From a virus: a DNA stretch of 21,971 bases. Below are positions 9,001 through 12,000 of the stretch, piece after piece. Position 1 is the stretch's first letter; every line of letters starts with the position of its first letter. The position numbers were made by a program. The stretch lies in UHGV virus genome UHGV-0067703. The stretch is one strand, 5' to 3'.

Positions 9001-12000
9001 GCTGCTCCATTCGCAAAAGCCCTGGGATACGCCAACACGGCGGACGCATTGAAAAAGCACTGCAAGTCATTGATTAAACTTAATTATCGCGAATCGCGAG
9101 AATTAGGTTTAGGTGACAATCCGCGAGGAATTCAACTTATTGGCCAAGGTGACGCTTTTCGTCTCATCATGCGTAGCTCGTTACCATCGGCAGAACGGGT
9201 TCAGGATTGGGTTTGTGAAGTTGTCCTCCCAGCCCTGATGGAGACAGGAACTTACAGCCTTAAACAGGAGAAAAGTACACCATCAAACGGCCTTCCTGAA
9301 TACCGCAAAGCTAAAGCGCTGAAAATGGAAATGGAGGTTATCTCAAGCGTTCTGGATCGTTTACCGCACCTGGGCGACAAGGCGAAACAGGCTGCTTACG
9401 CCTCAGTGATTAACCGTTCTGCTGGTTTTAATGTTATCCCCCTTCCTGTTCTTGATGAACATCACTACAGTGCAACAGAGGTTGGTAAACAGTTTGGCGT
9501 CACTGCAAACAAGATCGGTCGCATTGCCAATACCTACATGCTCAAAACAGAACAATACGGGAAATGGTTCATCGACAAATCCCCGTATTCGGATAAGCAG
9601 GTAGAAAGCTTTCGATACAATAATCGGGGAGTACGGAAGATTGAAGAAATCCTGGAGGCGGAGAACAAAGCAGAGTTCGGAACCTGATATCCTCCACTCT
9701 CCGACGCCGCCAGAATGACGGCGCGGTGGTTAAGCATGAGGCGAAATTTCTGCCGGGCGGTATTTTGTTGAGAGATGAGATACGTCAACTTCTCTTTCCG
9801 CTTTTTCGAGGCTCCATGCCGTCTGGAGACGAATCCATGAAGACGGAGTTCCACCCAGGACAGCAGCGAGACGAACAGCCATTTCAGGAGATATTGTCGC
9901 ATTACCTGAAACCAGTCGCTGAACAGTGGAAGGCGCGACATCAAGCGCTCTTGCCAGTTCCCTGATTCCAATATTCTGATCTTCCAGAATATCAGCAATA
10001 ATTTCTCCGGGATGAGGGGGATTAAACATCGTCATTTAGTGGTAATCAAACATTTATGGCCTGAATCCCGTTTTTTTCAATAACGGAAAGAAGTCGCAGG
10101 GCGGGACCACCAGGGCGTTTCACTCCGCGTTCCCAGTCAGATATCAGGTTTTTACTGACATTCATATATCTGGCAAAGACGGGTTGTGACAGATGTTCAC
10201 GCTCACGGAGTGCCCGGATTCTTTCAGGAGACATTGAAGGTGCTGGTTGCAGGCAGAGTTCATCGAATTCTCGCATAGTCTGTTTCGTTACTGCGCCGAT
10301 ATCATGAAGCGATTCCATCATTTCATGTACGGATGCAAGCGCATCACTGCGGTAATTTTTACTCATTTGGTACCTCCGTAAACTGACCCTGTAGAATCAG
10401 TTGTGCCAGTTGTTCATCTGTTAGATTGAGTACGTGAGGTGCAGCCTTCCGAAATGTGCTTTCCTCAGTAGCGGTTATATTTTCACGTTCATTTTTTGCA
10501 TATGCATATACGAAAAATGCCCTCATACCGACACGATAGAAAATGATTGTGCGATAACCGCCAGATTTGCCGCCACCGACTCGTGGCAGACGTTGCTTGA
10601 TAACGCCGTTACCCAGGTTTGCTGAGATAAGCCCGTTATCAGCCTGTTTAACAATTTCGCGCAGTGACTGGTCGGATATTTTGTTTTTGCGTGCAAATCG
10701 CTCAAACCAAGCGTTTTTAAAAATGCGCATTTTTGTTCCGTTATTAATGTATAACACATAGTATTACATTGTGTAGGGATCTGCAATGCCATCAGTTTGA
10801 CAACGTCGCGTATCCGGGATTATATTCATCGCACGCCAGCAAAATCTGGCGTCGGGATTAGGAACCCCGGATATTCAACCGCGACAGACACACGCCGCGA
10901 GCGTGTTTTTTATTGTCGTATGCGCACGCACATCTGAATTATGGTGAGGCGTATGGGGCAGCCGAAAGGCTGGCCGGTTGGTTGATCCGGTAGTTCCTAA
11001 CCCTGTACGTCTCGCCACCCGATGATTAGGAACCTGACGGTGGTGAATGAAAAACTCATCAACCGGAGGCGTCACTATGACAACTCAAGTTTCTGTTGAA
11101 ACACTCTCCACGATTACTTACAAGCAGATCCCCGTTATCACTACTGAACTTTTGGCGCACCTTTACGGCACAGAAGCTATTCGTATTCGCCAGAATCACC
11201 ACGAAAACAAAGGTCGTTTCATTGAGGAAAAACACTTCTTCAAACTTGAAGGTGAAACTTTACGTGAGTTCAAGCACAGAGTAGCTTTTAACTACTCTGT
11301 GAAAATTGCCCGTAACGTTCGTTCCCTCATCCTCTGGACTGAACGCGGCGCTGCCCGTCATGCAAAAATGCTCGAAACCGATCAGGCGTGGGAAGTGTTC
11401 GAAAAACTGGAAGACTGCTATTTCAGCCCGGGCAAAGCGGAACAGCACCCGCAGATCCAGCAGCAATTCACAGACGAAGAAATCATCCTCCTTTGCTACA
11501 TGCAACTCTGGATGGAAAAAGCCCAGGACCTTAGCAAGCAGCTGTACCCCATAATGAAAGAGCTGAACTCCTCATACACGAACAAGCTGTATGACATTGC
11601 GTTTGAGACTATCTACATGGTGACGAAGAACAGAGACGCGCTACTAAGGGAGGTAACACGTCTCGACATGTCAAGTTCCGTTATCCAGCGGGCCATGCCA
11701 ATGCTGAAAAGCCTGCGGGCAAGACAATTCGAGTTTTAAGGCCAGATTTGACAACACCGCATTAACGGGGCTATATTCCGCTTCATGGTGCTCAAAACAC
11801 CTTTGCGATAGCGGAAACCGCCCCGTCAGTTATGCGGATTTTTTTATGTCTACGACATTGAGAATTCAATGGTCGGGCGTGCGGCTAATAAAACACCCGC
11901 AAGGGAAATATGCCCGCCGTCTATCGCCGGTTTTGAGCGCCCGACCACCCTCTCAAAAGGGGTGAATTCAAAATATGCGATAGGACATAAAACCATGGCT

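Follow-up and report, generated by a model that had tools for sequence, protein, structure and literature searches.

A predicted P1/P7-type antisense RNA immunity module in the leader of an ORF6N gene of an Escherichia coli lambdoid prophage

In the temperate phage P22, the small RNA sar limits synthesis of the antirepressor ant, from whose opposite strand it is made and to which it is fully complementary. The CI RNA of satellite phage P4 and the CA RNA of phage N15 act by way of premature transcription termination. The present article concerns the leader RNA of ORF6N-1, a gene in UHGV virus genome UHGV-0067703; the whole stretch of DNA that was analysed (21,971 nucleotides, nt) is referred to as the window, and the leader lies on its plus strand. 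Compared with the closest described systems, the leader is, with a probability that we put near 85%, a P1/P7 immI-type antisense RNA immunity module placed before the ORF6N/P22_AR_C antirepressor gene of an Escherichia coli lambdoid prophage.

For phage P1, the facts used here come from the GenBank annotation AF234172 and from the summary in PMC5320573. The annotated order is promoter P1c4, a1 (TTGACAG), b1 (GTTAGTGC), the 77-nt C4 RNA, a2, b2, icd and ant1/ant2, where a2 begins three bases 3' of C4 and lies 41-47 nt before icd, and b2 occupies -18 to -11 from the icd start. PMC5320573 describes C4 as cut free by RNase P, at a GGW motif, to a product of ~77 nt, its element b' as occluding the ribosome-binding site, and P1 and P7 as separated in specificity by a 4-nt difference. 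Translation of icd couples C4 control to transcription of ant.

The second close relative is the IsrK - STnc1160/orf45 - AnrP region of the Salmonella prophage Gifsy-1 (RF01394; PMC4825925). There, compensatory mutations prove the pairing of a1 with a' and define, through the pairs G28/C162 and G31/C159, a translationally silent structure A; by our own numbering of the Gifsy-1 sequence these pairs fall in a1 and a'. IsrK binds Hfq and activates anrP translation 100-fold in trans, a stable processed RNA termed STnc1160 was detected from the C4 stretch, and expression of AnrP induces the prophage (PMC4825925).

The ORF6N-1 leader beside those of P1 and Gifsy-1

A sigma-70-type promoter at 10797..10826 (TTGACA, an 18-nt spacer and TATATT; 11 of 12 consensus positions) takes the position that P1c4 has in phage P1, and its -35 and -10 hexamers are unchanged across all 28 of the homologous leaders described below. 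Judged from where the isrK model starts and from our numbering of published Gifsy-1 positions, transcription would begin at about 10833. Since the ATG of ORF6N-1 lies at 11077, the leader would be ~244 nt long, in agreement with the original prediction, made from the sequence of this DNA, of a ~250-nt untranslated leader behind the same promoter. The Shine-Dalgarno sequence GGAGG (11065-11069) and the start codon (11077-11079) together span 11065..11079, and RefSeq annotates the same ATG as the start in an E. coli genome whose sequence matches 2820-16056 of the window at 100% identity. No RNA gene is listed in the RefSeq annotation of this locus.

The 5' part of the leader encodes an IsrK-like short RNA (10833..10912), which matches the Rfam family isrK (RF01394) at full length over 10833-10911 with 68.9 bits against a gathering threshold of 50. 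In its fold, hairpin 1 (10833-10852) is followed by hairpin 2 (10853-10869) with a1 in its loop, a single-stranded b1 and a terminator; like IsrK, it thus has three hairpins, the last of them an intrinsic terminator, and its own promoter immediately 5'. The terminator (10890..10912) consists of a 6-base-pair stem at 10890-10906 and then U6 (-7.7 kcal/mol, z score -2.0), and the hairpin with T-tract once noted at 10890..10914 is a real terminator that defines the short RNA. It is probably leaky, and transcription past the equivalent terminator has been demonstrated in Gifsy-1 (PMC4825925). The homologues use three different terminator stem sequences, with a T-run after each. The target family c4-a1b1 (RF03163) matches at 10820-10873 with 44.0 bits in a permissive Rfam scan, just below its cut-off of 46.7, and lies above the cut-off in 16 distinct homologous loci.

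A separate resemblance connects this region with the promoter. In the promoter spacer, the 3' half (TATCCGGGATTATATT) is conserved and lies upstream of the likely transcription start; it is similar to the 5' arm of the a1 hairpin (TCGGGATTAGG) and is also an inverted repeat of CCCCGGATA just 3' of a1; the segments involved are 10811-10821 with 10863-10873 and 10815-10822 with 10853-10860.

Downstream of the terminator lies a C4-type antisense RNA (10943..11019), which matches Rfam C4 (RF01695) at full length over 10937-11022 with 67.2 bits against a gathering threshold of 45. With its ends taken by homology to the annotated P1 C4, the mature RNA would be 77 nt long, from GGU at 10943 to GCCACC ending at 11019. 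A closing stem (10942-10958 with 11001-11017) encloses inner hairpin 1 (10959-10972), which has a GAAA loop at 10964-10967, and inner hairpin 2 (10973-10991). The original prediction had seen the GAAA-tetraloop hairpin and had placed it slightly too wide, at 10958..10974. The minimum free energy of C4 is -44.4 kcal/mol (z score -4.8), and the corresponding structure is the family structure. Across the 28 distinct leaders, the C4 helices are 99% paired and 10 pairs show changes on both sides; in slid controls, in which partners were shifted by 1-3 columns, at most 3 pairs changed on both sides. The processing determinants, 5' GG(U) and 3' CCACC, are invariant in the same alignment. Folding, a search of RNA family databases and covariation across homologues had all been suggested as checks, and each of them supports the view, put forward at the outset, that the region is a cis-regulatory or small RNA and not an ordinary 5' untranslated region: the whole leader folds with a z score of -3.8, the isrK and C4 matches both exceed their gathering thresholds, and the C4 fold is held by compensatory change.

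The leader also carries the elements by which C4 would recognize its targets. Three copies of a 10-11-nt motif had been predicted, and all are present: GATTAGGAACC in direct orientation at 10856-10866 and 11024-11034, and an inverted copy, GTTCCTAACC, at 10993-11002. The inverted copy can indeed pair with either direct copy, through an exact 8-nt core in which 10993-11000 is complementary to both 10858-10865 and 11026-11033. Because the elements in the window follow the order of the P1 annotation, this motif can be identified as an a1/a'/a2 set of P1 type. The upstream target a1 (GAUUAGGAAC, 10856..10865) sits in the loop of hairpin 2 at the same place as the annotated a1 of P1; a' (GUUCCUAA then CC, 10993..11002) is a single-stranded 3' internal-loop segment of C4; and a2 (GAUUAGGAAC, 11024..11033) lies 44-53 nt before the start codon and offers 8 contiguous pairs to a'. 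What the original picture of the pairing overlooked is a second set, b1/b'/b2, which reaches the ribosome-binding site. Here b' (UUGGUUGAU, 10978..10986) forms the loop of inner hairpin 2 of C4 and is complementary to both b1 (UUCAACC, 10874..10880, corresponding to the annotated b1 of P1 and offering 6 Watson-Crick pairs at 10875-10880, UCAACC) and b2 (AUCAACC plus GG through G-U pairs, 11058..11066). The latter covers -19 to -11 from the start codon and overlaps the first two Shine-Dalgarno bases. In the b':b2 duplex, the C4 loop GGUUGAU pairs with AUCAACC through 7 Watson-Crick and 2 G-U pairs that end inside GGAGG (-9.9 kcal/mol).

Counting the motif over the whole window is not significant by itself, since the 10-mer with at most one mismatch occurs 3 times against 1.28 expected and at least 3 times in 13 of 100 shuffles. 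Within the 244-nt leader, 19 of 5000 dinucleotide-preserving shuffles gave an 8-mer twice in direct orientation and its reverse complement as well. The decisive evidence for the recognition sets is their covariation at three sites in homologues, which is presented in the following section.

An additional pairing may involve a2. The sequence GGTGG 3' of a2 is invariant in 28/28 leaders and can pair with the CCACC 3' end of C4 (11036-11042 with 11014-11019), which would enclose a2 in a hairpin loop as long as the transcript is unprocessed; the P1 counterpart is a CCUGC...GCAGG hairpin around its a2. Because both sides are invariant, no covariation signal is possible for this pairing.

The regulated gene, ORF6N-1 (11077..11739, plus strand), encodes a protein of 220 amino acids with an ORF6N domain (Pfam, 8.9e-20) followed by P22_AR_C (2.4e-08). 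The protein is 64% identical to Gifsy-1 AnrP over the N-terminal 131 amino acids and is a probable antirepressor.

Set beside the c4 system of P1/P7 (RF01695; targets RF03163), the locus shares the order of the elements at almost the same distances: a1 in a hairpin loop, a terminator-like hairpin, a 77-nt C4 of the form GGU...GCCACC, a2 a few nucleotides after C4, and b2 at -19 to -11 from the start codon where P1 has -18 to -11. Shared as well are a two-part recognition that differs between relatives and a regulated function that would consist in relief of prophage repression. The locus differs from P1 in that icd is absent, so that b2 and the Shine-Dalgarno sequence stand directly before the regulated gene, and in that an ORF6N + P22_AR_C protein takes the place of an ANT/KilAC protein. 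Whereas P1 is a plasmid prophage, the present element is an integrated lambdoid prophage with a second module in tandem, and a C1-type operator was not identified.

The leader layout and its sequence blocks are nearly identical to those of Gifsy-1, where a1 and b1 likewise lie on a short terminated RNA and an ORF6N protein is encoded downstream. The two loci differ in their a and b sequences, in the C-terminal part of the protein and in the upstream neighbour, which is a divergent RelE/HTH/HigA operon here and antQ in Gifsy-1. With P4 CI (seqA/seqB/seqC) and N15 CA, the module would have in common an immunity RNA that is processed from the leader of the operon under its control and is flanked on either side by sites complementary to it; in contrast to those systems, the downstream site lies here on the ribosome-binding site. 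With P22 sar/ant it would share a small RNA that limits an antirepressor, the regulator here being on the same strand and acting through two short seed elements. By every sequence-level criterion tested, the element is a member of the C4 and IsrK families, and thus of a known kind with no new mechanism.

Recognition elements in homologous leaders

Searching viral contigs with the ORF6N-1 protein gave 79 loci (49-96% amino acid identity) with 39 distinct upstream regions. In 39/39, either isrK plus C4 or an RNA of the sRNA-Xcc1 family was found above the gathering threshold, ending ~55 nt before the start codon. The 28 distinct isrK/C4 leaders were aligned. Since MAFFT misaligned the 10-nt window-type motif, putting its one-base indel in columns that do not correspond, alignment pair counts were unsuitable for the a pairings; a1:a' and a':a2 were scored instead by duplex energies for each sequence, cognate against non-cognate.

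The recognition elements are the most variable segments of these leaders, and they change together at three sites. A lack of conserved pairing in homologues had been named among the grounds for abandoning the original prediction; the 28 leaders show the reverse, a co-change that preserves it. The leaders hold 7 a-types and 6 b-types, or 8 and 7 when P1 is added. The element a' matches a2 in 28/28 leaders and a1 in 27/28, and every b' type has a matching b1 and b2 except in the mosaic L009. Written as a1,a2 / a', the a-type of the window is GATTAGGAAC / GTTCCTAA, while its relatives have GATTTGCAC / GTGCAAA, GATTAGCAC / GTGCTAA, GATTGGAAC / GTTCCAA, GATTGGCGTC / ACGCCAA, GATTCGAAC / GTTCGAA and GATTGGCATC / ATGCCAA. 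The b-types, given as b' with b1/b2, include GGTTGAT with (A/T)TCAACC, GGTTTC with GAAACC, GTTTCGA with TCGAAAC, GGTAGAT with ATCTACC and TCCGTAC with GTACGGA.

The energies follow the same pattern. Cognate a':a2 duplexes average -9.0 kcal/mol against -4.9 for non-cognate pairs, and no non-cognate pair reaches the cognate mean. The corresponding means are -8.6 and -5.3 kcal/mol for b':b2, and -8.4 and -5.5 for b':b1. Co-change of recognition elements with their targets, which is the basis of heteroimmunity between P1 and P7, is therefore found here as well, with cognate duplexes better by 3-4 kcal/mol. Counted over the 28 leaders and P1, the 8 a-types and 7 b-types are combined in 13 ways, so that the a and b elements reassort. 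Two leaders look like recombinants in which one cognate contact has been lost: in L049 (1216-1506), a1 is GATTGAGAC and is mismatched to its own a' (GTTCCTAA), and in L009 (1217-1507), b' is GGTTGAT while b2 is of the GAAACC type.

These data bear on the way in which the leader was originally framed, namely as an attenuator or riboswitch-like switch, self-contained in cis, in which the inverted copy alternates between the direct copies. The a1:a' and a':a2 pairings are mutually exclusive, as such a switch would require, and a1 and a' are indeed paired in the minimum-energy fold of the whole leader. The segments that would do the switching are, however, hypervariable and co-varying, which is not how a conserved ligand pocket would behave, and the middle element resides in a stable, independently conserved 77-nt RNA that is known to be excised in P1. 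No riboswitch or leader family matched at E <= 10 in the permissive Rfam scan of 10600-11300, which returned only isrK, C4, c4-a1b1 and two chance matches (E > 7), and no conserved leader peptide or orf45 was found among the 28 leaders. As the alternately pairing segments are the most variable ones and co-change at three sites, the signature is that of RNA-RNA recognition and not of ligand or ribosome sensing. A self-contained switch of this kind must be considered highly improbable, and that part of the original prediction did not survive.

The same leaders speak to the model published for Gifsy-1, in which the antirepressor is translationally coupled to an upstream open reading frame (ORF), orf45, whose ribosome-binding site is opened by the short RNA. 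In Gifsy-1, orf45 takes its ATG from the 5' end of C4, continues through C4, a2 and b2, and has a stop codon that overlaps the anrP start, and the coupling is backed by genetics (PMC4825925). Two in-frame ATGs are found at the 5' end of C4 in the window also (10941 and 10953), yet the frame that they open closes after 14 codons, compared with 45 for orf45, and ends 91 nt before the start of ORF6N-1. ATG 10941 is without a Shine-Dalgarno sequence, whereas ORF6N-1 is preceded by a GGAGG of its own. In each of the 28 E. coli-type leaders the frame is closed after 14-36 codons, with frame shifts between them, and only that of Gifsy-1 overlaps the start codon. Coupling through such an ORF is accordingly very improbable for this locus, if somewhat less so than a cis switch. 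Since the orf45 frame closes early in every E. coli-type leader, the coupling ORF is not a family feature; the conserved object of the family is the RNA, which suggests that orf45 of Gifsy-1 is a lineage-specific overlay on the C4 RNA.

A protein gene on the minus strand (ORF 10875-11075, 66 amino acids) was also considered. Among relatives, the longest frame there varies without pattern between 47 and 91 codons, and since covariation of the plus-strand RNA explains the conservation of the leader, this candidate was rejected.

A predicted route to translational control

The comparisons allow a mechanism to be proposed. One promoter (10797-10826) would drive the whole unit, and most transcripts would probably end at the modest terminator at 10890-10912, yielding an IsrK-like small RNA (sRNA) of ~80 nt in which a1 is exposed in a hairpin loop and b1 is single-stranded. 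Transcripts that read through would carry the tRNA-like folded 77-nt C4 (10943-11019), which by analogy with P1 may be excised by RNase P and 3' trimming. The C4 loop b' (GGUUGAU) and the single-stranded a' (GUUCCUAA) would then pair with b2 and a2 on the mRNA, and their pairing at -19 to -11 (b') and -53 to -44 (a') should prevent 30S binding at ATG 11077. Because b2 abuts and partly covers the Shine-Dalgarno sequence, translation of the antirepressor would be blocked and the prophage would stay quiet. The copies a1 and b1, on the short sRNA and in cis, may compete for a' and b'; alternatively, the short RNA may open the cis a1:a' pairing. Since a1/b1 would compete for the same a'/b', abundance of the short RNA would relieve repression, which fits the trans-activation by IsrK in Gifsy-1.

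Several points weigh against this interpretation of the locus. The Shine-Dalgarno sequence is covered by two G-U pairs only, so that occlusion would rest on the 30S footprint rather than on direct pairing. There is no P1-type icd, and b2 with the Shine-Dalgarno sequence leads straight into the 220-amino-acid ORF6N protein. That protein is not homologous to P1 Ant, which has an ANT/KilAC domain, and its antirepressor activity is a property that we infer. The two natural mosaics, each without one cognate site (a1 in L049, b2 in L009), apparently persist. Finally, a1 mutations in Gifsy-1 increased basal translation (PMC4825925), which a pure decoy model does not predict.

An alternative use of a1/b1 is offered by control of the P4 CI / N15 CA type, in which the antisense RNA would pair with a1/b1 on the nascent transcript and so set the read-through at 10890-10912. 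The two elements lie 10-35 nt 5' of the terminator, which is kept as a structure in the 28 leaders, P1 and Gifsy-1 while its sequence varies; because a1/b1 covary with a'/b' as tightly as a2/b2 do, they are under selection. The authors of the Gifsy-1 work themselves likened IsrK to P4 seqA and STnc1160 to CI, but they also found that the IsrK effect was not reduced by co-expression of STnc1160 (PMC4825925). In module 1, moreover, no anti-terminator pairing was found and the terminator hairpin is present in every fold, and termination control leaves the position of b2 at the ribosome-binding site, with its P1-like geometry, unexplained. Control by termination is on balance unlikely, and could perhaps be an added layer upon the translational block by C4 that we favour.

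The neighbouring module and the prophage setting

Directly downstream of ORF6N-1 lies a second, paralogous module on the plus strand (11748..12666). Its promoter (11748-11777) has both hexamers identical to those of module 1, and its gene, ORF6N-2 (11995-12666, ATG at 11995), encodes a protein 45% identical to ORF6N-1. In place of C4, this module carries an sRNA-Xcc1-type RNA (11871-11954; Rfam RF02221, 78.1 bits against a gathering threshold of 53) with the topology of C4, comprising a closing stem, inner hairpins, a single-stranded 3' segment and a CCACCC tail. The recognition sequences are different from those of module 1 and again form three-site sets. CUCAAAA at 11791-11797 and 11952-11958 faces the single-stranded GUUUUGAG at 11930-11937, and GCGAUAG at 11805-11811 and 11977-11983, the latter overlapping the Shine-Dalgarno sequence of ORF6N-2, faces the loop CUAUCGC at 11921-11927. 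By design, module 2 would thus control ORF6N-2 as module 1 would control ORF6N-1. A terminator/anti-terminator flip through GCGG/CCGC/GCGG was tried for module 2 and rejected, its weak folds being no better than those of shuffles.

The same co-variation at three sites is seen in six distinct modules of sRNA-Xcc1 type from related loci. Given this, the C4-like topology and the module's own three-site sets, sRNA-Xcc1 looks like a second scaffold of the C4-type device, although Rfam keeps it outside the C4 clan. In published work, sRNA-Xcc1 has been seen to precede an ORF6N gene in APSE phages and to form arrays in Xylella; it is still discussed there as a trans-acting sRNA linked to virulence in Xanthomonas and Xylella. 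Two or three modules stand in tandem at L026, L032, L033, L021, L023 and L072. Modules of C4 and/or Xcc1 type are located at 1262-1447 and 2847-3032 in L026, at 686-868, 1378-1461 and 2287-2376 in L032, and at 802-885 and 1378-1461 in L033. Where the downstream start codon was read, each stacked module stands before an ORF6N-like gene and has different recognition sequences. A tentative extension, to which we give somewhat less than even odds, is that the a and b elements make up a reassorting RNA immunity code common to co-resident prophages, with sRNA-Xcc1 as second scaffold of the same self-targeting antisense device and IsrK-like RNAs as the matching anti-antisense keys.

The prophage is integrated at a tRNA-Arg gene (anticodon CCU, 15984-16055, at the integrase end), and the module has the recombination genes (gam, recT, exo) on one side and the integrase on the other. 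Directly upstream, on the minus strand, a divergent three-gene operon (9730-10757) encodes a RelE-family toxin (10359-10757), a helix-turn-helix (HTH) protein (10046-10366) and a HigA-like HTH antitoxin (9730-10035). Its promoter must share the 10758-10796 spacer with the module promoter. In another locus, L079, a hok/sok-type sok antitoxin RNA (48-222, 115 bits) lies ~1 kb upstream of the isrK/C4 module.

Immediately beyond the tRNA, 16060-21971 holds another integrative element, which encodes an integrase of its own as well as TOPRIM/DUF927 and DUF5375 proteins. This looks like one tRNA site occupied by two elements in tandem; in the closest RefSeq genomes, dsdC follows tRNA-Arg instead. At the left end of the window, an ORF of 659 amino acids (12-1991) gave no hit in Pfam, and a further ORF (2070-2474) gave a hit to the Hpt domain. 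When 5426 complete E. coli genomes were searched with megablast, window positions 1-2388 found no match.

Of these 5426 genomes, 908 carry sequence similar to 10700-11800, as do 277 phage records, mostly of Shiga toxin (Stx)-converting phages. The comparison places a regulatory unit, so far unannotated, in E. coli prophages of a widespread class. It also joins two literatures, those of P1 c4 and of Gifsy-1 IsrK/orf45, that have used different vocabularies. The parts most worth following are the neighbouring module of sRNA-Xcc1 type and the reassorting recognition elements. Control of the antirepressor decides the induction of such prophages and, in Stx phages, induction also releases toxin.

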